This document shows positions 4,019-21,182 of a stretch of 32,000 bases of DNA, piece after piece. Below the pieces are notes generated by a model, which saw only the letters and a program-made list of their open reading frames with translations, searched no databases and was not told the DNA's origin. This stretch comes from Patescibacteria group bacterium. Lineage in GTDB: Bacteria > Patescibacteriota > Patescibacteriia > 2-01-FULL-39-33. The stretch covers positions 90,001 through 122,000 of the forward strand of contig JBAZRV010000003.1 in assembly GCA_041662745.1 (NCBI GenBank). Direction: 5' to 3'. Made by a program: the position numbers and the translations under genes. Each line of letters opens with the position of its first letter. The stretch's first letter is position 1.

Positions 4019-5335
4019 TCAGCTGTTGGGCCAGTACTTGCCGACTGGCCATTCGGCGATAGAAACATTGTCAATCATGACGCCGGCTTCGCTTAAACGC
4101 AATTGCGTGTTTGCGGAGATGACGTCAATAATGTGTTTCTTATGTTGCGCCAGTTCTTCCGACATGCCGGCCAGGATGCTGCCAGCGCTTGCTATTCCCG
4201 GATTGGCGAAAATAGAACAGGTTGTTTCCGTCGGCAAGCATTCGGTTAGCGCCACTATCGTCTCTCTTCTGACAACATCAGTGAGATATTCCTCAAGCCC
4301 TTCCTGTTGATGAAAGGTTTGAAGGTTTTTCAGATAGCTTTCATTGCTGAGCAGAGTGTAGCCAACAGCCAATCTCAACTCATTCCCGTCAAGTGACGCT
4401 TCAACCGCTAAACCGTCTTTGGCGGCGGCGATGCCCCGAGTGTACTTTTTGGCGAATAAATTTACAAAGCGATGATCATAGGCCAGCAGCGTATCCTTAT
4501 CATCAATGGCAAAACGTTTGTAAAATTCTCCGTCGGATCGGTTAATAAGGATAATTGAACTGTTTTTGCTTAATAAATATGACGGAGTTTTAAAAGTAAA
4601 CAAAGTTGACACGACAAGGGCTGTGATAAAGAATGCCATGATTACTGGTTTATCGTGTTTGTAAGTTGAGGTATCATGCACTATCGTAGCCGCTATTATC
4701 GCCGGTACCATAACGCAGGTAAATATGAACATTACCGCAATAACCGCGTTCGGCAAGAAAATTACCGACAAGTAATACAGATAGACTGTCATGGCGACGG
4801 CGGCAATGATTATGCTGCAAGGTATCATAAATACCGTAACGATATCTGTCAGATCATCGCCGTGTTCGCAGAACCAATTTTTTGTCCCCTTGGCTATTCG
4901 GACAAAACCGCAGAACAACCAGCCCAGGATTAGACTGACCGGACTGATGATCTTCTTTAATGTTTGTATCTTTTTGTTGGGCGGTTTTAGCAGGATCCTG
5001 GCCTGCGACAAACTGACGATCCTGTTGGATATCAGTGAGATGATCAGTTTTTTATATTGCGAGTTTAAGGTCGGCAGGAATTCCGGTTGCCAGTCCATTC
5101 CCGTGGCTAAGCGGAATAATGTGAGACCCAGCTGATGGAAGGCTTCGCGTACGTCCTTGACCGGAGTTGTCGAGCCGTAATCGACTTTATTATTATCATC
5201 AATAAAAATATTTCCCGCTTCATACTTCACCAATTCCCCTTTTTCTTTCAGACGCGCTTCCAGATCCTCCAGCAGTTCCGAGGCGATGGCATATAACAGA
5301 CCATCTCCTAATTTGATTTCGTAGCGTTTTTTCAT
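4019..5335 (-). CDS. Hypothetical membrane protein, paralog 1 (kinase C-lobe-like N-terminus, about 4 TM, SPFH/band-7-like C-terminal domain)
   Basis: The ORF track extends to a TTG at 5392. I prefer ATG 5335, preceded by AAGGAG (5345-5350, reverse). It is paralogous to 5513-7060: IFIDDNNKV...REAFHQLGLTLFRLATG vs VFINDSRKV...REALYYLGVTLYHVATG, and VNLFAKKYTRGI vs VNLFTKSYAPGI. Confidence 0.75.
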   Translation of the reverse strand: MKKRYEIKLGDGLLYAIASELLEDLEARLKEKGELVKYEAGNIFIDDNNKVDYGSTTPVKDVREAFHQLGLTLFRLATGMDWQPEFLPTLNSQYKKLIISLISNRIVSLSQARILLKPPNKKIQTLKKIISPVSLILGWLFCGFVRIAKGTKNWFCEHGDDLTDIVTVFMIPCSIIIAAVAMTVYLYYLSVIFLPNAVIAVMFIFTCVMVPAIIAATIVHDTSTYKHDKPVIMAFFITALVVSTLFTFKTPSYLLSKNSSIILINRSDGEFYKRFAIDDKDTLLAYDHRFVNLFAKKYTRGIAAAKDGLAVEASLDGNELRLAVGYTLLSNESYLKNLQTFHQQEGLEEYLTDVVRRETIVALTECLPTETTCSIFANPGIASAGSILAGMSEELAQHKKHIIDVISANTQLRLSEAGVMIDNVSIAEWPVGKYWPNS

Positions 5336-5429
5336 GGTCACGTTCTCCTTTATGGTTGCGGTAACTGTTGTTTTGGTTAATTTTAAGGCCAAAATTGTAA
5401 GGTGCTTGTTATCTGCATAACAATATGGC

Positions 5430-5458
5430 AGATTAGCATTATGTTATGAAAATGTCAA
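5430..5458 (-). promoter_or_regulatory. Candidate promoter of paralog 1
   Basis: Minus strand reads TTGACA (5458-5453), 17 nt, TGcTAATCT (-10 at 5435-5430). Nearly the same architecture as 7154-7182. Confidence 0.5.
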
Positions 5459-5465
5459 ATAATCA

Positions 5466-5499
5466 ATAAATGAAAAGCCACCTCCTCATGGGAAGTGGC
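5466..5499 (-). terminator. Intrinsic terminator after paralog 2
   Basis: Minus strand has the GCCACTTCCCATGAGGAGGTGGC stem followed by TTTTCATTTATT. Sequence resembles the terminator at 3961-3993. Confidence 0.6.
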
Positions 5500-5512
5500 A
5501 AAAATGAACTAG

Positions 5513-7060
5513 TTATTCAGTTTCCTGTTCGGCCGTTACTTTGGCCGGCGGATTGGCCGGCTGGGATGGCGTTTGCTTTTCAGCCGTTTCTCCCGGCTTT
5601 TTCGGCTCTTTGACTTCAATGTAGTTATACTGATTCTTGAATTGTTGGCGCAATTGGCCTTGAATATTGTCCATGATTTGCCGGCGTTGTTTATCAATGA
5701 CGGCCTGCTGACGCGACAACAGTTCGTTTCTGACTAGGCGGACGGTAAGCTCGCGCAGGACCTGATAATCATTTTTTGACAGCGTGCCGTCCGCGCCCTT
5801 AGCTTCAACGGTTATTTCTTTAAGCTCCTGCTCAATTGCCAGGCGGGACTTAATGGGGACAACGCTTTCAGCTAGAGCTTTTTGAACCGCGACTTGACCG
5901 GCGTTAATCAGCTCTTGTTCTAGATCGGCTTGCGTTTGCTTATTCTCCGTCATCCGTTTCCAGTCGCTTTCAAATGTCGCCTGGTCGGTGATGGCATACT
6001 TGATCCAGAAGCAGAACTTTTCTCCGTTTTTATCCTTATCCAGCGGCGCTTCCACCGGGATGCCTTCATGCTGAATGAGTATGCCCGGCGCATAGCTTTT
6101 GGTGAATAAATTGACATACGCAGCTTCGTAATGCGGGATGTAATGTTTATCTTCGCCGTCGGCGATTCGGCCGATCAGGTTTCCGCTGGAGCGATCAATT
6201 ACTACTAAGGGAGGACAAAAGCCAGTCGTTGGAGTCTCAAAGATTTCATAAATTGAAAGCGAGGCAATCAGGATTAAAAAGGCAATCCAGCCCCTGAAGA
6301 TGCAATCATCCTCCCGCAGATCGGTGAGCATGGCTGATATCACAGTTATTATGACCCCTAAAAAGAAGGAGAAAAATACAATTAGAAAACCGCAAATTAC
6401 AGCCATAGCGATACTAAAATAAATAGCATTAACAGAAGCCAGGCAAATGAACGAAGCGCCGGCGATGATAATCAGCATTACGTGGGCGATAAGCGAAAAT
6501 TTACGTTTTATAAACCTCAGCAGTTTCAACAGTTTGGCCGCTGTTTTTTTTGTTTGCGGATAAATATTGCCAGCTTGAGCTCCCAGCCGTTTAAAAGCTG
6601 AGACCGCTCCCTGGCCGATCAGCGTAATCAGCCAGCAGAGCGGGTTTAACAGCAATTTGGTTTTACGTGCCAGCTTTTTGATTCGGCTGGGTCGGATCAG
6701 GAGTTCTTCCACTTGCTTGAAGTTGACCGCTTGGCCGGATAGCAATAATTCCACTAACGGCCAGAGGTCAGAGTCAAACGGTTCATAGCCGGCATCGGCG
6801 GCGCGCAGGGCTGAATCGTTTATTTCCGATTTGCCCGTGGCCACATGATACAAGGTAACGCCTAAATAATAGAGCGCTTCGCGAATATTTTTGATCTGCG
6901 AAGTCGGCAGGGTGTCGCAGACAACCTTTCGGCTGTCATTGATGAATACCGTATCCGGGTCAAAACGCAATACGACGTCGTTGTTTGCCGCTTCGCGCAA
7001 CCTGTTAGTCAGGGTTTGGGCGATAAGAAAAAGATCTTCTTCCCGTTGCCAGGTTCTCAT
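5513..7060 (-). CDS. Hypothetical membrane protein, paralog 2 (kinase C-lobe-like N-terminus, about 4 TM, SPFH-like domain, long coiled coil, Pro/Glu-rich tail)
   Basis: 515 aa. ATG 7060 with AAGGAG (7066-7071, reverse) 5 nt upstream. Hydrophobic core at roughly residues 140-280. The C-terminal region is rich in Q/E/K heptads. Confidence 0.8.
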   Translation of the reverse strand: MRTWQREEDLFLIAQTLTNRLREAANNDVVLRFDPDTVFINDSRKVVCDTLPTSQIKNIREALYYLGVTLYHVATGKSEINDSALRAADAGYEPFDSDLWPLVELLLSGQAVNFKQVEELLIRPSRIKKLARKTKLLLNPLCWLITLIGQGAVSAFKRLGAQAGNIYPQTKKTAAKLLKLLRFIKRKFSLIAHVMLIIIAGASFICLASVNAIYFSIAMAVICGFLIVFFSFFLGVIITVISAMLTDLREDDCIFRGWIAFLILIASLSIYEIFETPTTGFCPPLVVIDRSSGNLIGRIADGEDKHYIPHYEAAYVNLFTKSYAPGILIQHEGIPVEAPLDKDKNGEKFCFWIKYAITDQATFESDWKRMTENKQTQADLEQELINAGQVAVQKALAESVVPIKSRLAIEQELKEITVEAKGADGTLSKNDYQVLRELTVRLVRNELLSRQQAVIDKQRRQIMDNIQGQLRQQFKNQYNYIEVKEPKKPGETAEKQTPSQPANPPAKVTAEQETE

Positions 7061-15303: not shown

Positions 15304-18300
15304 TTAAGCGCGGAAATCACAGATGCCGTTGTAATCGCACCACTTGCAGGTGTTCTCTGACGGTTGAGGCGGGAATTTGCCGCGTTTTATTTTGGTTACG
15401 GTATCAATTATTTTTTCTTTCATTTTTTCCAGTTCTTTGGGCGTGCCCAGGAAGGAGAGTTCCGAATCGTTGTCAAAATAATAGTATGCCAGTTCTTTGA
15501 CCGGTTGCCGCAATATTTGTTCGGCGGCCAGCTGATAAATCAATAATTGGTCCTTATCGTCAGCCTCCAGTTTTTTCTTCGGACTGCCTGTTTTATAGTC
15601 AATCAGCCGCAAGCCGCCGTTAACTTCATCAATGCGATCAATGGCGCCGCGCACCGACACCTCCGGCGCCAGTTTGACGGTGAAGCCTTTTTCCAATTCC
15701 AGGGCCACAGCCGGCGCTTGTCGCCAGCGATCAAAAAACTTCTTCAGGCAATCCAATCCGTGGTCGCGGTATTTGCGCTTGGTTAGCGCATCCGGATACC
15801 ATTCGTCCACAAATGACATTTCGTAAAGCTCCTTGACTTCCTCCCAGGATATTTCCAACGAATCACCCGTTTCACCGAAGAGGTTTTTTTGTTTGGCCTC
15901 GGCTTTGGCGCGCGCCAGAATAAAGAATTTTTGCATGGTTGAATGCATGGTTTTGCCGAAAGAAAATACGGGCTTGCCTTTTATGGGCAAACGCAGAATA
16001 TGGGCGAAACGATACTGGTAGGGGCAGGATTGAAAAGACTTCAGCTGGGTGAAAGAAATGGTGGGTAATAGCGGTTTACTGCCGGTTGGCAGGGTTTCGT
16101 CAGTATTTTTGGCTTTGGTCGCGGTTAGCAAATCAGAGTCGGGTATGGCTAACGCCGTCGCAGCCAAAGCAAAACCGTCCTCACTAAGTTCTGACAGGAA
16201 GCGAGAAAGTTTTTTGGCTCTGGCGCCCCCGTAGTCTTCGGCCGAAGATAAATATAAGCCCTGCTTGGCTCGCGTCATAGCGACATAAAATAATCGCCGT
16301 TCTTCCTGCAGATGCGCATCGCCTTCGGGCAAGATTTCTTTCGTCAGCGCCGTCGGCAATTCCAGCCGGTCACTCTTGTTGCCCGAGGGGAATTTTCTGT
16401 CCACCAGATTGGCGATAAAAACGTATTTAAATTCTAAGCCCTTGGCTGAATGGACAGTCATAATTCTGACTGAATCGGGGCTTAAGTCTTCCAGATTCGG
16501 CGCCAAAGCGCCTTCCTCCCCCGCTTCCGCTTCCAATTCCATCAGAGCGCGAAAATTATTCAAACTGTGATCCAGATTATCTTTTTCAAACATCTGCATC
16601 TTGCGATAAAACTGATTTAGGTAATTGAGTTCCTGGCGGTTTTCCAAATTGTCTTTGGCGGTCAGGCGCTTGAGATAGCCGGTGGCCTCCAGAAAATCCT
16701 GGCAGAGTTCCGTGGGCCGGGCGCCGGCTTGGGCGCGCGCGGTTTGTGTTTCAATCAGTCCGGCGATTTTAAGCATTTTTTTTCTGCCCTCGGCGGACAA
16801 TCCCGGCAACAAGGAGTTTTGCTTAGCGGCCTCAAATAACGACCAGGCTCGTTTGCCCGCCTGGTAATTAAGCGTGCCGAAATCAGTCAGGCCGATTTGC
16901 CAGGCCGGCAAGCTTAGAATGCGGAACATGGCGATGTTTTCCCTATAATCATCCAACACTTTGAACCAATTCATGATATCCAGAATGATTTTTTTGCCGT
17001 AAAGGCCGCGCGAAGCCATGAACATGTAAGGAATATCGGCTGATTCCAAAACATAGCAGAAATCGTCCGCGGAAGCGTTGGCGCGCACCAGAATGGCGAA
17101 ATCCGACCAGTTGGTTTCTTTATCGGCATTATATAATTCAATAATTTTATCCGTTACCGCTTTGACTTCATCGGCGATAGTCTGGCCATGCAGGTGGCTG
17201 ATCTCTCCGGCGCAATTCAAGTGAGCGGCGAGTTTTTTGGATAATTTTTTTTGTCCTTGGGATAATTTCGCTTCCAAGCGATCAGGATTGTTGCGTTGGA
17301 TAAAATTATAGGATAAATCTAAAATATTCTGGCAAGAACGGTAATTGTCGGTCAACAGTATTTCTTTGGCGCCGGGAAAATCATCTTTGAACTGCAAAAT
17401 ATTGGACACCGACGCGCCGCGGAATTTGTAGATGGACTGGTCGTCGTCGCCGACCACGGTCAGATTGTTTTTCGGCTCGGCTAAAAGTTTGACTAATTCG
17501 TATTGCGCCCAATTGGTGTCTTGAAATTCATCCACTAAAATATATTTGAATTGCGAGCGGTATTTGTACAACACCGCTTTCCTGGTTTTAAATAATTTGA
17601 GAGTGTAATTGATCAGGTCGCCGAAATCCAAAGCATTGTTTTCTAACAGTAATTGCTGATAGGTATGGTAAGCGTCGGCGATTTCCAGTTGTTTGGCGAT
17701 CTCTTCCGTTTTCAGCTCGGCGATTTCCGTCGGCGACAGGTTTTCTTGATCCTCTTCCTTGATGATTGATTTGAGAAAATCAGCCGAGTCGGAATTTAAT
17801 TTTAAATTTTCCGCATATTCCAAATAAGCGTCGGCGGAGATTTCTTCGTCTTTGGCGCGAGAAAACAGCTTTAACAAATCGTGAATGAATTTGGTGGGGT
17901 TGCCCAAGGGGCGATAATGCTTAAGATTGAAGCGATCAAGATTCTGGCGCACTAAAAGCCATTGTTCGGTTTGGGTGAGCAAACGAAAATCAGCCGGCAA
18001 GCCGATTTCTAACCCGTATTCCTTAAGGATGCGTTCGCAAAAAGCATGAAAAGTGGAAATCCATAAGTCATTGTAGCCCAAGGGCAAAAGCTGATCTACG
18101 CGTTCTTCCATTTCAGCGGCGGCTTTTTCGGTAAAAGTCAGGGCTAAAATCTGTTCGGGGAGAATCCCTTGCTCAGTCACCAGCCAGGCGATTTTAGAAG
18201 TGATGACCGTGGTTTTGCCCGTGCCGGCGCCGGCGATAATCAACAGCGGGCCGTCCCGGTGGGTAACGGCTTGCTTTTGGGCTTCATTCAGGTTTTTTAG

Positions 18301-18318
18301 CAGTTCAGAATTCGGCAT
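15304..18318 (-). CDS. UvrD/PcrA-type superfamily-1 helicase fused to a C-terminal Cas4/AddB-like PD-(D/E)XK nuclease with a 4-Cys cluster
   Basis: Walker A AGAGTGKTT, DEFQDT, and helicase motifs throughout. The C-terminus carries CPYQYRF...GAIDRID...LIDYKTG...QLLIYQLA...CKWCDYNGIC. The ORF track starts at TTG 18369; ATG 18318 (MPNSELLKNLNEAQ) is preferred. Confidence 0.85.
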   Translation of the reverse strand: MPNSELLKNLNEAQKQAVTHRDGPLLIIAGAGTGKTTVITSKIAWLVTEQGILPEQILALTFTEKAAAEMEERVDQLLPLGYNDLWISTFHAFCERILKEYGLEIGLPADFRLLTQTEQWLLVRQNLDRFNLKHYRPLGNPTKFIHDLLKLFSRAKDEEISADAYLEYAENLKLNSDSADFLKSIIKEEDQENLSPTEIAELKTEEIAKQLEIADAYHTYQQLLLENNALDFGDLINYTLKLFKTRKAVLYKYRSQFKYILVDEFQDTNWAQYELVKLLAEPKNNLTVVGDDDQSIYKFRGASVSNILQFKDDFPGAKEILLTDNYRSCQNILDLSYNFIQRNNPDRLEAKLSQGQKKLSKKLAAHLNCAGEISHLHGQTIADEVKAVTDKIIELYNADKETNWSDFAILVRANASADDFCYVLESADIPYMFMASRGLYGKKIILDIMNWFKVLDDYRENIAMFRILSLPAWQIGLTDFGTLNYQAGKRAWSLFEAAKQNSLLPGLSAEGRKKMLKIAGLIETQTARAQAGARPTELCQDFLEATGYLKRLTAKDNLENRQELNYLNQFYRKMQMFEKDNLDHSLNNFRALMELEAEAGEEGALAPNLEDLSPDSVRIMTVHSAKGLEFKYVFIANLVDRKFPSGNKSDRLELPTALTKEILPEGDAHLQEERRLFYVAMTRAKQGLYLSSAEDYGGARAKKLSRFLSELSEDGFALAATALAIPDSDLLTATKAKNTDETLPTGSKPLLPTISFTQLKSFQSCPYQYRFAHILRLPIKGKPVFSFGKTMHSTMQKFFILARAKAEAKQKNLFGETGDSLEISWEEVKELYEMSFVDEWYPDALTKRKYRDHGLDCLKKFFDRWRQAPAVALELEKGFTVKLAPEVSVRGAIDRIDEVNGGLRLIDYKTGSPKKKLEADDKDQLLIYQLAAEQILRQPVKELAYYYFDNDSELSFLGTPKELEKMKEKIIDTVTKIKRGKFPPQPSENTCKWCDYNGICDFRA

Positions 18319-18400
18319 AATTAAGTCTATATTTAAGTTAATTTTACCAGAAAACCGGGGATATTTCAAAGCCTGTGATTTTTCGTTAAAATTTTATTTG

Positions 18401-18430
18401 AAAATAAAAAACCGCCGTTATTCGGGCGGT
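18401..18430 (-). terminator. Intrinsic terminator after the 172-aa ORF
   Basis: Minus strand has ACCGCC-loop-GGCGGT (18430-18411) followed by TTTTTATTTT. Confidence 0.6.
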
Positions 18431-18483
18431 TTTGGGCGTTTTGGTTGCAAAGAGCCGATGCGAAGGGCCGGTTGGCGCTGGCA

Positions 18484-19002
18484 TTAAAGCTGAAACCCGA
18501 GGCGCTTGGCCTGTTTTTGCAGTTCCTGAAGGCGTGTTTGGCACTCCTGTTCTTCCAGCTTTTTATCCAACTTCCGTTCCTTGGCTTTCCTGTAATCGGC
18601 AATCACTTGATCCGGTTTGTCAACCAGCAAATCAAGCGGTGTTCGCCAAGCGCCGGTGTCTATGAAAACCTCAACCTTGGGATCGTCATCATGTTGCCAA
18701 TAGACATCAAAAACCTTTATGGATTCCCCCGGCAGGCAAAACCAAATTTCAATATTGTTGCCTCCGAAACAGGTCATGCCGAAAATGCCGCGAAATTCAA
18801 AATTATCAAAGCCTTTGAACTTCCAGGTTGTTTTGATATGATCGCTCGAAGTATCCCGCGACACCAATTCCCCTATTCCCGTGAGTATTTTTGCGGCGAA
18901 TCTTAAATATTTTAGTACCAGTTCTTTCCTGTCTTTAATCTGTTTTTCCAACGCCGCGATTTCTTGCTCAATCGTTTTTTCTGCGACGGCTGCTTTTGCC
19001 AT
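18484..19002 (-). CDS. Hypothetical protein (172 aa), coiled-coil ends around a beta-rich core
   Basis: ATG 19002 with GGGAGG (19011-19016 region, reverse) 8 nt upstream. Has its own promoter and terminator. No family recognised. Confidence 0.65.
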   Translation of the reverse strand: MAKAAVAEKTIEQEIAALEKQIKDRKELVLKYLRFAAKILTGIGELVSRDTSSDHIKTTWKFKGFDNFEFRGIFGMTCFGGNNIEIWFCLPGESIKVFDVYWQHDDDPKVEVFIDTGAWRTPLDLLVDKPDQVIADYRKAKERKLDKKLEEQECQTRLQELQKQAKRLGFQL

Positions 19003-19060
19003 TAGTCAGTCCTCCCTCGGTTTTTTGGTTGCAAGGATTTAATGTAATGAACACTAAAGT

Positions 19061-19088
19061 ATTATAACGGATTGGGATAAAAAGTCAA
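19061..19088 (-). promoter_or_regulatory. Candidate promoter of the 172-aa ORF
   Basis: Minus strand reads TTGACT (19088-19083), 16 nt, TATAAT (19066-19061). Confidence 0.45.
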
Positions 19089-19209
19089 GGTGTTATAAAA
19101 CCTCGACATTTTCCAATTTTGCTCATATCTCGCTTCTGACTTGTTCCCGCCCCTTAATATTGTTATGACTTTTGTCAGAAAAAAAGCAAAACAAAAATCA
19201 CGTCCATAG

Positions 19210-19280
19210 CTCGGGGACAGGGGCTCGAACCCCGATTAACGGCTTCAAAGGCCGCTGTCCTACCATTAGACGATCCCCGA
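19210..19280 (-). tRNA. tRNA-Gln (anticodon UUG)
   Basis: Hand-folded cloverleaf: acceptor TCGGGGA/TCCCCGA, D arm GTCT-AATGGTA-GGAC, anticodon arm GCGGC-CTTTGAA-GCCGT, T arm CGGGG-TTCGAGC-CCCTG, discriminator G. It has the U1-A72 pair typical of bacterial tRNA-Gln. CCA is not encoded. Confidence 0.85.
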
Positions 19281-19338
19281 GTTATAGACGCGATTTTTCG
19301 TTAACTAACGTCTTACTTGATTTGAATTATTTATATTT

Positions 19339-19461
19339 TTACTTATTATAAGGCCGGCCGGTCACCTTGGCCTCAAACTTCTTTTTTCTGGCGCTTTTCT
19401 TGTCTTCCTGTTTGACTAAGCGAGGCACCTTGATCTTCGGATCCCTTTTTCTTTTTGCCAT
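19339..19461 (-). CDS. Possible small basic protein (40 aa: MAKRKRDPKIKVPRLVKQEDKKSARKKKFEAKVTGRPYNK)
   Basis: ATG to TAA ORF below the track threshold. Local GC is higher than the neighbouring spacer. There is no clear SD and no family recognised, so it may be chance. Confidence 0.25.
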   Translation of the reverse strand: MAKRKRDPKIKVPRLVKQEDKKSARKKKFEAKVTGRPYNK

Positions 19462-19480
19462 ATGTTTATTATTGCTGGGG

Positions 19481-19521
19481 CAAAACCGAACTAATCTCAA
19501 ATTAGAAAGTCGTCGGTTTTG
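19481..19521 (-). other. Long two-tier hairpin between the ncRNA terminator and the small ORF
   Basis: CAAAACCGA (19481-19489) pairs with TCGGTTTTG (19513-19521). An inner stem CTAAT (19491-19495) pairs with ATTAG (19501-19505). Confidence 0.4.
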
Positions 19522-19585
19522 CTGTTCTTTTAATTAATCTATGTTTTATTCTAACAAATTTATCGCTGTTTGGCAAGATTTTGCC

Positions 19586-19664
19586 AAAAAAAAGAGCCCC
19601 CGTAACTTTGGTCGCACACCCATGAAACATTACTATTTATTGGTGTGTGGCTAGTTGACGGGGG
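19586..19664 (-). terminator. Long intrinsic terminator closing the ncRNA unit
   Basis: Minus strand CCCCCGT (19664-19658) pairs with ACGGGGG (19603-19597). Extended interior pairing includes CACACACC/GGTGTGCG. It ends in CTC plus T8 (19593-19586). Confidence 0.65.
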
Positions 19665-20370
19665 TCAAAATTAAAGGTGCTTTCGAATGGCGGGGATCGG
19701 AGCGTTTTTAGACGCTCTTTTCGGCCGGGTCCGGAAGAGGCTCCATCACAAAATTCCTGAGCCGCTAATGCGAGAGCTCCGCTAAACAACGCCGCGCTAA
19801 CGCCCATTTCCATTACACTTTGGCAGCGCGAACGATCAATGACCGATGGCGGACCTCATGGCAACAAACAAATCCGGATATTCGGGCCGCATCCTGCGCC
19901 CCGATCCCCAAATTCAGCCGGTTGGTGTTTATTCCTGAGGGGCCCGGCTTGCCCCTAAATACATCGTTGTGTATTTGGCATGTTTGGTTTCCTTTGGCGG
20001 CCGGGATTAACGCACCCCTTTCATTAACTGGTCGGTGCGCCTAACCACCTGGCAACAGGGCCGGGGCGCTGTCCAATATAGCGATCCCCTGCTATGCTTT
20101 TATCTACAAGTTGCCAGTTCGTTAACCCTCGTAATTACACAAACCCCACGGGATAACGACTCATTAGGAGCCCTCCAGTTTTGTTTGGCCGATAGTTGGC
20201 CATGCCCGTTTTAACTATCCAGATGTTCGCCAACGGGCGAGACTCTGGAAAAAACGATACTACTGCTGACTGTCAATGAGCTTGGTGAGCGCGAGACGGA
20301 AGCGGCCCTTAAGCCTAGGAATGGAACGAATATGTTGGTTCCCCCACTTTCCGTCTCGCCTCACCTTTGA
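19586..20370 (-). ncRNA. Large (about 785 nt) structured non-coding RNA, class unassigned
   Basis: Bounded by a near-consensus promoter and a strong terminator. No credible ORF in any frame. GC-rich compared with the AT-rich flanks. Contains many stable hairpins and long-range complementarities (see findings). Confidence 0.6.
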
Positions 20371-20376
20371 GCTTCA

Positions 20377-20405
20377 ATCATATCACATCGTTAATATTTT
20401 GTCAA
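20377..20405 (-). promoter_or_regulatory. Near-consensus extended -10 promoter driving the ncRNA
   Basis: Minus strand reads TTGACA (20405-20400), exactly 17 nt, TGaTATGAT (-10 at 20382-20377). A very AT-rich tract lies upstream. Confidence 0.6.
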
Positions 20406-20460
20406 TAGCTTTATCCACAGGCAAATTATTAATAATAAAAAATTAGTGTAAATTTAGCTA

Positions 20461-20480
20461 AAATAAATTAATTTATTTTA
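20461..20480. repeat. 20-nt perfect AT-only palindrome in a divergent control region
   Basis: AAAATAAATTAATTTATTTT equals its own reverse complement. It lies between the ncRNA promoter and the recR promoter. Confidence 0.7.
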
Positions 20481-20548
20481 TGATTAAAATGGCGATAATC
20501 CGCCATAGGCGGTTTTGCCGGAAAACAAACTTAAATAAAACTATAGAC

Positions 20549-20577
20549 TTGCCCCAAGAGCGTCTATCAGTTAGAAT
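20549..20577 (+). promoter_or_regulatory. Candidate promoter of recR (near-leaderless)
   Basis: TTGCCC (20549-20554), 17 nt, TAGAAT (20572-20577). Only 8 nt separate the -10 from the ATG at 20586, and there is no SD. Confidence 0.45.
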
Positions 20578-20585
20578 GAAGTTGT

Positions 20586-21182
20586 ATGTCAGAATCAAAT
20601 ATCAAAAACCTTGTTGATAAATTTGCCAGATTTCCCTCAATTGGCCCAAAAACCGCCGAACGAATGGTGTATTACCTGCTCAGACAATCGCCGGAAAAAA
20701 TGGACGAATTATCTTCGGCAATTCATCAACTAAAAAATAGCATTACCGCTTGCAATATTTGCTTTAATTTTAGCGAATCTAATCCTTGTCCAATCTGTTC
20801 CGATCTCCGGCGCGATCGTCGGATTATTTGTATTGTGGCCAAACCGCAGGATATTTCAGCCATTGAGAAAACCGGCTCATATAACGGCGTTTATCATGTC
20901 TTAGGCGGCAATATCAATCCGCTGGAAAATATTATGCCGGAGAATTTGCGGCTTAAAGAACTCTTGGCGCGCATCAAGGATAATGAAGCTTGCGAACTTA
21001 TCCTGGCTTTGAATCAGGATATGATCGGTGAAACCACCGCTTTGTATCTGTCTAAATTATTAAAGCAATTTTCTCAAGTGACGGTAACGCGTTTGGCGCG
21101 CGGCTTGCCCATGGGCGCTGATCTGGAATACGCCGATGAAGTGACTTTGGAAAGCGCTATTTCCGGACGCAGGGAATTATAA
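20586..21182 (+). CDS. recR: Recombination protein RecR
   Basis: HhH motif FPSIGPKTAERM, C4 zinc finger CNICFNF...CPICSD, and a Toprim domain with VYHVLGG. 198 aa. Confidence 0.95.
   Translation: MSESNIKNLVDKFARFPSIGPKTAERMVYYLLRQSPEKMDELSSAIHQLKNSITACNICFNFSESNPCPICSDLRRDRRIICIVAKPQDISAIEKTGSYNGVYHVLGGNINPLENIMPENLRLKELLARIKDNEACELILALNQDMIGETTALYLSKLLKQFSQVTVTRLARGLPMGADLEYADEVTLESAISGRREL

Follow-up and report, generated by a model that had tools for sequence, protein, structure and literature searches.

To our knowledge, large structured RNAs without a known function are rare, with OLE, GOLLD, ROOL and raiA as examples, and we know of no such RNA described for the Candidate Phyla Radiation (CPR), whose members are ultra-small symbiotic cells with very reduced genomes. 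GOLLD and ROOL are frequent in phages and prophages. Among RNAs that carry short open reading frames (ORFs), RNAIII of Staphylococcus aureus (514 nucleotides (nt), 14 hairpins) encodes the delta-haemolysin of 26 amino acids (aa), and the tag ORF of tmRNA has neither a start codon nor a Shine-Dalgarno (SD) sequence, the tRNA-like domain of that molecule being formed from its 5' and 3' ends. GOLLD and ROOL are large ornate RNAs of bacteria and phages whose function is unknown and which form RNA-only multimeric cages (PMC12286853), and OLE RNA (ornate, large, extremophilic; ~610 nt) forms a membrane ribonucleoprotein with OapA (PMC3413148). Each of these earlier large structured RNAs revealed unexpected RNA biology, the RNA-only cages being the latest case. 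Here we analyze a 32,000-nt stretch of a Patescibacteria contig (JBAZRV010000003.1, positions 90,001 to 122,000; hereafter, the window) in which a ~790-nt unit beside recR appears to encode, as a gene in its own right, a structured RNA of no described family, a reading to which we assign a probability of about 0.68. An earlier reading of the sequence (hereafter, the original prediction) had proposed a large structured RNA at this position and had likened it to GOLLD, ROOL and OLE.

A minus-strand unit has its own promoter and terminator

All coordinates refer to the 32-kb window, and the RNA lies on its minus strand. The unit runs for ~790 nt from promoter to terminator (20405-19586), and the predicted RNA covers 20372-19586. 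Its promoter (Table 1) has 11 of 12 consensus matches together with the TG of an extended -10 element, is the top promoter match in the region, and is predicted to start transcription near 20370. This promoter is kept in four of four homologues, the version in the divergent copy L082 being TTGACA, 17 nt and TGATAATAT. At the other end, the loop sequence of the terminator is common to three homologues, and the terminator of L162 is simpler (13 base pairs (bp)), with other hairpins ahead of it. A scan for consensus terminators gave no match at this site, where the loop is too long for the scan, and the arms and T8 were read directly in the sequence. An own promoter and an intrinsic terminator that are both conserved in the homologues indicate, at the level of sequence prediction, an independent transcription unit.

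The interior of the unit has a GC content of 0.49-0.56 versus 0.30-0.39 in the flanks (~45% in the whole window). The RNA strand holds no ORF of at least 60 aa, the sole ORF of that length (19820-20044) being on the opposite strand, and no gene call was ever made inside the unit. Of ten ORFs (32-74 aa) within the unit or next to it, a collection of 15 billion predicted proteins lacks nine, the tenth being the small-protein gene described below, and five ORFs of 42-74 aa gave no match in Pfam. The spurious ORFs of the RNA region were also tried as a route to homologues and abandoned, as none of them is in the protein collection. On all of these features (the positions of promoter and terminator, the GC-rich interior between AT-rich flanks, and the single ORF of at least 60 aa) the original prediction was accurate.

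A DnaA-box-like 9-mer just upstream of the promoter is the only perfect match in the window and is held at equal spacing from the promoter in all four homologues (including L001, L160 and L082); it may be a regulatory site. The perfect box also prompted us to consider an origin of replication. We rejected this candidate because the boxes are neither clustered nor enriched (9 observed versus 6.2 expected) and there is no skew minimum.

The RNA is found in four genomes at one syntenic site

A search of related genomes and metagenomes, which had been proposed with the original prediction, recovered three homologues, all at the same site. The first, L001, was found with an nhmmer E-value of 7e-114 in a relative whose RecR is 88% identical to that of the window, and the second, L160 (and L161), lies on a 958-kb contig (E-value 2e-222). 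The third is split between L082 and L162, Logan contigs from a single sample with an overlap of 26 nt, which merge to give an RNA of ~967 nt. L160-L162 were reached through the small-protein cluster that emerged from the protein-collection look-up of the ORFs. The window, L001 and L160 are close relatives, and L082+L162 is the divergent fourth copy; the RNAs of the relatives measure 770-967 nt. All four copies sit between recR and a gene for a small basic protein, with tRNA-Gln after it, and their carriers are four genomes of one Candidatus Buchananbacteria subclade (Patescibacteria/CPR; groundwater), RecR and the other genes being what assigns the window to Buchananbacteria. The only block conserved across all four copies is AACGATKTAYTTRRGGGC-N2-4-CCGGGCCC.

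No other carrier was found. Among 80 recR loci from GTDB genomes only L001 has the RNA, and neither nhmmer --max nor sensitive blastn added any. In sister lineages (small protein 68-78% identical; RecR at most 67%) recR adjoins the small ORF and tRNA-Gln, or only GIY-YIG and NUDIX genes lie between them, and none of these lineages has the RNA, which is absent from every small-ORF locus outside the four genomes. A profile hidden Markov model run over 1.38 Mb of loci returned no further copies, and when 0.9 Mb of Patescibacteria loci plus the window were searched with a covariance model for the B-C sub-domain, the four known copies alone came up. Furthermore, blastn against 50,697 phage and 72,556 plasmid records gave no match, and six motif scans of IMG/VR viral sequences gave no true homologue (L081 and L172-L180 are chance matches). 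A metagenome pattern scan on the pseudoknot motif was discarded: 75 of its 76 loci were chance matches in GC-rich coding DNA, L133 was an assembly palindrome, and L126 was L001's own contig. By its distribution, the RNA is a gain in one narrow subclade, at a site already holding the tRNA. The adjacency of the tRNA is thus incidental and a property of the site, because sister lineages keep these neighbours without the RNA.

Upstream of recR, short metagenome contigs of several samples are all interrupted inside the RNA gene or directly ahead of it (L083:1-42, L181:1-60, L082:1-213 and the P0002 contig). One sample (JGI 3300014208) yielded both the window organism and L001. These observations suggest co-existing strains with RNA regions divergent enough to disrupt assembly.

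Compensatory changes point to a conserved fold

Between the window and L001 conservation is mosaic, ranging from 27 to 97% per 40-nt interval, and the indels are not multiples of three. Folding these two sequences together with RNAalifold gave 200 pairs, 15 of which were changed on both sides versus 0-3 in slid controls. With all four sequences the consensus fold reached -135 kcal/mol, compared with -64 ± 6 kcal/mol for 60 column shuffles (z = -11.3); the antisense consensus fold was weaker (-120 kcal/mol). Single-side changes were preferentially G-U-compatible in the minus-strand sense, in agreement with the orientation of promoter and terminator. Single-sequence folds gave z-scores of -4.0 (sense) and -5.5 (antisense), which do not tell the strands apart. 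The same elements were regained from independent folds of each sequence and of anchored segments, and in the B-C sub-domain 94% of cells were paired and 5 pairs were changed on both sides. Conserved structure together with compensatory changes beyond controls, the generic signature of a structured non-coding RNA, is thus seen here in a set of four sequences, the pseudoknot and the stems of nested hairpins being the parts that covary.

Several points weigh against this interpretation. Four sequences, three of them close, are too few for a calibrated covariation test such as R-scape. RNAalifold chooses fitting pairs, which makes some of the counts partly circular, and the column shuffles did not preserve dinucleotides, which makes the z-score optimistic. 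The RNAs of the window and L001 are identical at ~75-78% of aligned columns, only modestly above the four-fold-degenerate sites of recR (52%) and the helicase gene (71%), and a structure predicted for one of the two frequently fails to form in the other. Finally, the distribution is narrow, and the element could be young and weakly constrained.

We weighed in this light whether the unit might be non-functional DNA, i.e., a decaying pseudogene or a mobile-element remnant that folds well through its GC richness. It does resemble an insertion relative to the sister lineages, its GC content is above that of the genome, its conservation exceeds that of synonymous sites by the modest margin just given, and both strands fold well singly. 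However, the four lineages keep promoter, terminator and core blocks, with compensatory changes in the intervening stems, and the consensus fold lies far beyond the shuffles and is better on the promoter strand. The scanned ORFs have no protein similarity, the indels do not respect a reading frame of three, and there are no terminal repeats, integrase or transposase. Moreover, the adjacent unconstrained DNA (18283-19179) is unalignable to L001, whereas the RNA aligns. Because promoter, terminator and helices are conserved with compensation beside DNA that cannot be aligned, we consider a pseudogene or inert insertion improbable and retain the reading as a structured RNA.

Predicted helices and a pseudoknot recur in all four copies

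The elements of the predicted fold are listed in Table 1. In the 5' hairpin domain H1, four pairs are changed on both sides, three in the stem GCGAGACG/CGUCUCGC and one in GUGAG/CUCAC. The long-range pairing LR1 (AUCGUUUU/AAAACGAU) is possible in all four copies (8, 9, 13-16 and 11 bp) and was predicted de novo for L160 and L082+L162; a local pairing that competes with LR1 fails in the divergent homologue. Hairpin S3 is replaced in L162 by a longer, different hairpin. Inside the invariant helix C, both partners differ in 4 of the 9 pairs of the enclosed hairpin, and hairpin S6 has as equivalents AACACC/GGUGUU in L001, GGCGCACCG/CGGUGCGUU in L160 and CACGCC/GGCGUG in L162.

Further downstream, hairpin D participates in an H-type pseudoknot. 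In L162 the pseudoknot pairing is GACCGG/CCGGUC, with two pairs changed on both sides, and minimum-free-energy folds of L160 and L162 predict it. Domain E (200-290 nt) is closed by a helix of 13-17 bp in all four copies, with G-U to A-U and G-C changes, and its inner helices are GGCC/GGCC and UCCGG/CCGGA (19878-19874 with 19734-19730), the latter becoming CGCGG/CCGCG in L162.

The 5' hairpin and the long-range pair GGGGAUCGG/CCGAUCCCC had both been placed correctly by the original prediction, and both are conserved in all homologues. Of the two abutting hairpins that it proposed, the one at 19938-19956 is present (hairpin D), but the one at 19957-19976 is not conserved, and its AACGAU forms LR1 instead. 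Two other proposals did not extend beyond the window: the three UUAGCG repeats are absent or different in the relatives, and a second GGGGAUCG at 20089-20082, put forward as an alternative pairing, is not conserved in them. We also dropped two helices of the two-sequence fold, CGUUUU/AAAACG (local) and UCGUU/AACGA, which are unsupported by L162 or L160.

Table 1 Features of the RNA unit and its surroundings in window coordinates
Feature	Coordinates	Strand	Details
recR	20586-21182	+	next to the RNA unit
DnaA-box-like 9-mer	20411-20419	+	perfect; TTATCCACA (TGTGGATAA on the RNA strand); ends 5 nt upstream of the -35 element
Sigma-70-type promoter, extended -10	20377-20405	-	TTGACA 20405-20400, 17-nt spacer, TG-n-TATGAT ending at 20377
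H1, 5' hairpin domain	20284-20365	-	basal stem 13-19 bp, branched tip; in independent folds of all four copies
LR1, 5' arm	20253-20260	-	GUAUCGUU; pairs with 19961-19968
Hairpin S3	20219-20248	-	CCAGAGUCUCGCC...GGCGAACAUCUGG; kept with A-U to G-C changes in L001 and L160
SD and mini-ORF (putative)	20135-20176	-	GGAGG 20176-20172, 7-nt spacer, mini-ORF 20164-20135; MSRYPVGFV*, 9 codons
Helix C	20050-20116	-	UGGCAAC/GUUGCCA, invariant; encloses a hairpin with a different stem in each lineage
Hairpin S6	20010-20040	-	GCGCACC/GGUGCGU; equivalents in L001, L160 and L162
LR1, 3' arm	19961-19968	-	AACGAUGU; long-range pairing with 20253-20260
Hairpin D and H-type pseudoknot	19916-19956	-	AGGGGC-AAGCCGG-GCCCCU (19956-19938); loop AGCCGG 19949-19944 with CCGGCU 19921-19916
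Domain E	19692-19909	-	closing helix GGGGAUCGGGGCG/CGCUCCGAUCCCC (19909-19897 with 19704-19692); inner helices and variable core
Terminator, long bulged hairpin and T8	19586-19666	-	arms CCCCCGT 19664-19658 / ACGGGGG 19603-19597; T8 19593-19586
Gene for very basic 40-aa protein	19339-19461	-	MAKRKRDPKIKVPRLVKQEDKKSARKKKFEAKVTGRPYNK; homologues called as genes; real conserved gene
tRNA-Gln(UUG)	19209-19280	-	ARAGORN

A nine-codon ORF is embedded in the RNA

The most conserved block of the RNA holds an SD-led mini-ORF (AUG AGU CGU UAU CCC GUG GGG UUU GUG UAA) that the original prediction did not mention. The AUG falls within a small conserved hairpin (GGCUC/GAGUC), on its 3' arm. In L001 and L160 the encoded peptide is identical to that of the window, and all five nucleotide differences are silent and fall at codon position 3, a pattern expected by chance in ~0.4% of cases before correction for post-hoc choice. 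One of these changes, CGU to CGC in L160, would disrupt a base pair of the predicted RNA fold. In L162 the SD, here with a 9-nt spacer, again precedes an ORF of nine codons that begins with AUG and ends in a stop, and the peptide (MSCYFVGYT*) is identical at five of nine positions. SD, AUG, nine codons and stop are thus present in four of four homologues, with no indel inside the ORF. GGAGG is also the SD of bona fide genes in the window. Together, these features make translation of the mini-ORF plausible but tentative, the less probable of the two outcomes.

On this evidence the unit could also be taken as mainly an mRNA for the nine-residue MSRYPVGFV, with the peptide as the functional product and the RNA structure controlling its translation or stability (e.g., through a hairpin that sequesters the start codon). 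The arrangement kept in all four copies (GGAGG, 7-9 nt, AUG, nine codons, stop), the silent differences among the three close relatives, the change that would break an RNA pair, and the use of GGAGG by real genes here all speak for it. However, a peptide of 9 aa leaves ~750 nt of conserved helices outside the ORF unexplained, and the divergent homologue shares only five of its nine residues. In addition, an SD with AUG and a tiny ORF arises three times by chance in 64 kb (both strands), and the start and stop of this one belong to blocks conserved in any case. That accidental alignments arise is also shown by a second mini-ORF, aligned but lacking a coding signature. We consider it unlikely that the peptide is the main product, and a structured RNA that may also be translated remains our preferred explanation.

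The second mini-ORF has eight codons (19955-19981, minus strand). Its start (AUG or GUG) and stop (UAG; UGA in L162) are aligned in all four copies with no indels, in indel-rich surroundings. We rejected it as coding: it shows no third-position bias, has a weak SD and is probably accidental.

Neighbouring genes are probably independent of the RNA

The original prediction had singled out 19003-20585 as the longest non-coding stretch of the window. This holds for the RNA unit, which is ORF-poor, but the stretch also contains the conserved gene for the 40-aa protein, and there are three units in all. The small protein has no Pfam match. Its homologues (40-42 aa) occur across Buchananbacteria, just upstream of tRNA-Gln wherever the flank could be read and usually near recR. 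Its gene has its own promoter (TTGCCA, 17 nt, TAGAAT at 19576-19548), downstream of the RNA terminator.

Since the RNA terminator lies 125 nt upstream of the small ORF and tRNA-Gln and all three share one orientation, the unit could be a cis-acting leader or attenuator of these genes, with the terminator as a regulated switch. Against this, the promoter of the small-protein gene is conserved also in relatives without the RNA, 790 nt far exceeds any known leader, and the mini-ORF has no Gln codons. Because the downstream genes are served by a promoter of their own and work in relatives that lack the RNA, cis-regulation is unlikely, and we regard a leader function as very improbable.

Beyond the tRNA lies an ORF of 172 aa with a strong SD (GAGGGAGG; 18484-19002, minus strand). 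It is an ORFan that stands alone in its cluster (one of 5.8 billion), and so offered no handle for finding homologues; it is missing from L001, the closest relative. In relatives, partial copies of the tRNA-Gln 5' end (UUCGGGGAUCGUCUAA...) directly precede the intact tRNA-Gln, at L022:5640-5710, L167:3655-3690 and L162:1160-1215, and these would fit past integration events at tRNA-Gln. In another relative, L170, an insertion of GIY-YIG and NUDIX genes separates the small ORF from recR, and a UvrD/AddA-like helicase gene beside the locus (L170:485-2857) carries an intein (Hint and Intein_splicing domains). By these gene arrangements, the recR/small-ORF locus is an insertion hotspot. In L002, a more distant relative (RecR 66%), a different ORF-free stretch of ~700 nt lies upstream of recR (5265-5988, minus strand); it is unrelated in sequence to the RNA and contains a pair of promoter-like sites along with hairpins resembling terminators and a short ORF with an SD.

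No known RNA family matches the unit

We compared the sequence by cmscan with all 4227 families of Rfam 15 at the gathering score, and also at E ≤ 10 with permissive filters. At the gathering score the window yielded only tRNA, and at E ≤ 10 the region 19300-20650 and the homologues L161 and L162 yielded only noise (snoRNA and miRNA models, E > 0.5). The models of GOLLD, ROOL, OLE, raiA and HEARO gave no match at E ≤ 10 in any of these three sequences. RNase P models likewise gave no match at E ≤ 10, and a GGAAAGUCC-type CR-I is absent or not conserved. For tmRNA, Rfam was negative and ARAGORN found only tRNA-Gln, and for SRP RNA and 6S RNA Rfam was negative at E ≤ 10 in the same three sequences, the size of the RNA also being incompatible with them. 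For reference, RNase P RNA is marked by conserved regions CR-I to CR-V and by a P4 helix whose strands flank the catalytic core, SRP RNA by its domain IV motif, and 6S RNA by its mimicry of an open promoter over ~180 nt.

A highly divergent housekeeping RNA (RNase P RNA, tmRNA, SRP RNA or 6S RNA) could still be suspected from a few short look-alike strings, e.g., AAGCCGG.../...CCGGCU, which recalls the P4 helix of RNase P RNA. These P4-like strands span only ~25 nt and do not enclose a core, Rfam and ARAGORN found no match, and sister lineages, in which these essential RNAs must be present, lack the RNA. We regard the chance of such an origin as negligible. The original prediction had also looked in vain for motifs of RNase P RNA, tmRNA and SRP RNA, and the negative Rfam and ARAGORN searches agree with it.

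Its suggested kinship with GOLLD, ROOL and OLE fared less well. A length of ~0.8 kb, many helices, a pseudoknot and a nearby tRNA gene would suit a divergent member of a known large ornate family (GOLLD, ROOL, OLE, raiA or HEARO). However, no covariance model matched even with permissive filters and three homologues, no phage or plasmid relative was found by blastn or in the six viral scans, and the tRNA neighbour predates the RNA at the locus, tRNA-Gln and the small ORF sitting by or near recR in sister lineages that lack it. We therefore hold membership in a known ornate family to be a slim prospect, slimmer even than a leader function. The proposal that the RNA may represent a new class is better supported: no Rfam family matches it, and its helices are conserved with compensatory changes in four genomes. 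On the basis of these four sequences, it is probably a new class of structured RNA.

Discussion

In the mechanism that we favour, the RNA would be strongly transcribed from its own promoter and would act in trans as a folded molecule, serving as a scaffold or within a ribonucleoprotein as its RNA component. The fold that the four copies share, divergent as they are in sequence, has several domains: a hairpin at the 5' end, a large domain that a long-range helix closes, a hinge with a pseudoknot, and another large domain with a closing helix of 13-17 bp. Ribosomes may engage it at the SD and the nine-codon mini-ORF, whose start codon would lie in a hairpin, and a micropeptide could result, as in S. 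aureus RNAIII. A more far-reaching version, possible but doubtful, is that the four copies are the founding members of a class confined to a lineage of CPR/Patescibacteria, i.e., a dual-function, pseudoknotted RNA of 0.8-1.0 kb that would combine a scaffold or ribonucleoprotein role in trans with a hairpin-gated mini-ORF, and whose DnaA-box-like site may tie expression to the replication state.

A non-coding gene of 0.8-1 kb that is maintained in a reduced genome implies real cost and benefit. The locus is also a compact test case, with a clear promoter and terminator, four natural variants and sister lineages that serve as a natural "knock-out", and the embedded mini-ORF raises the question of whether ribosomes engage an ornate RNA. 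The tiny family is a weakness, and a recent acquisition specific to this lineage would be of limited general importance.

Among the known systems, the RNA is like tmRNA in being structured, with pseudoknots and an internal reading frame of tag length that ends in hydrophobic residues. It differs in that ARAGORN and Rfam are negative, its ORF starts with AUG behind an SD, the molecule has neither a tRNA-like domain nor a CCA end, and sister lineages lack it. RNAIII offers the likeness of a large structured RNA of regulatory type with a short SD-led ORF among hairpins; the two are unrelated in sequence, the ORF here has 9 codons and its translation is putative, and pairing with antisense targets within the window did not exceed chance. 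Like OLE, the RNA is large, highly structured, stand-alone, probably abundant and restricted to one lineage, but it matches no OLE model, has no adjacent oapA-like gene, and comes from another phylum and habitat. Self-complementary motifs in the RNA (UCCGGA twice, GAGCUC, and CCGG in a loop) are not evidence of assembly of the kind that GOLLD and ROOL undergo. From these two the RNA is set apart by the lack of covariance-model similarity, by its absence from the phage and plasmid collections, by a tRNA adjacency inherited from the locus, and by its conserved SD and mini-ORF. It resembles both in forming a separate transcription unit of several hundred nt with many helices, long-range pairings and a pseudoknot, in its patchy, narrow distribution near a tRNA gene, and in the variable periphery that surrounds its conserved core.

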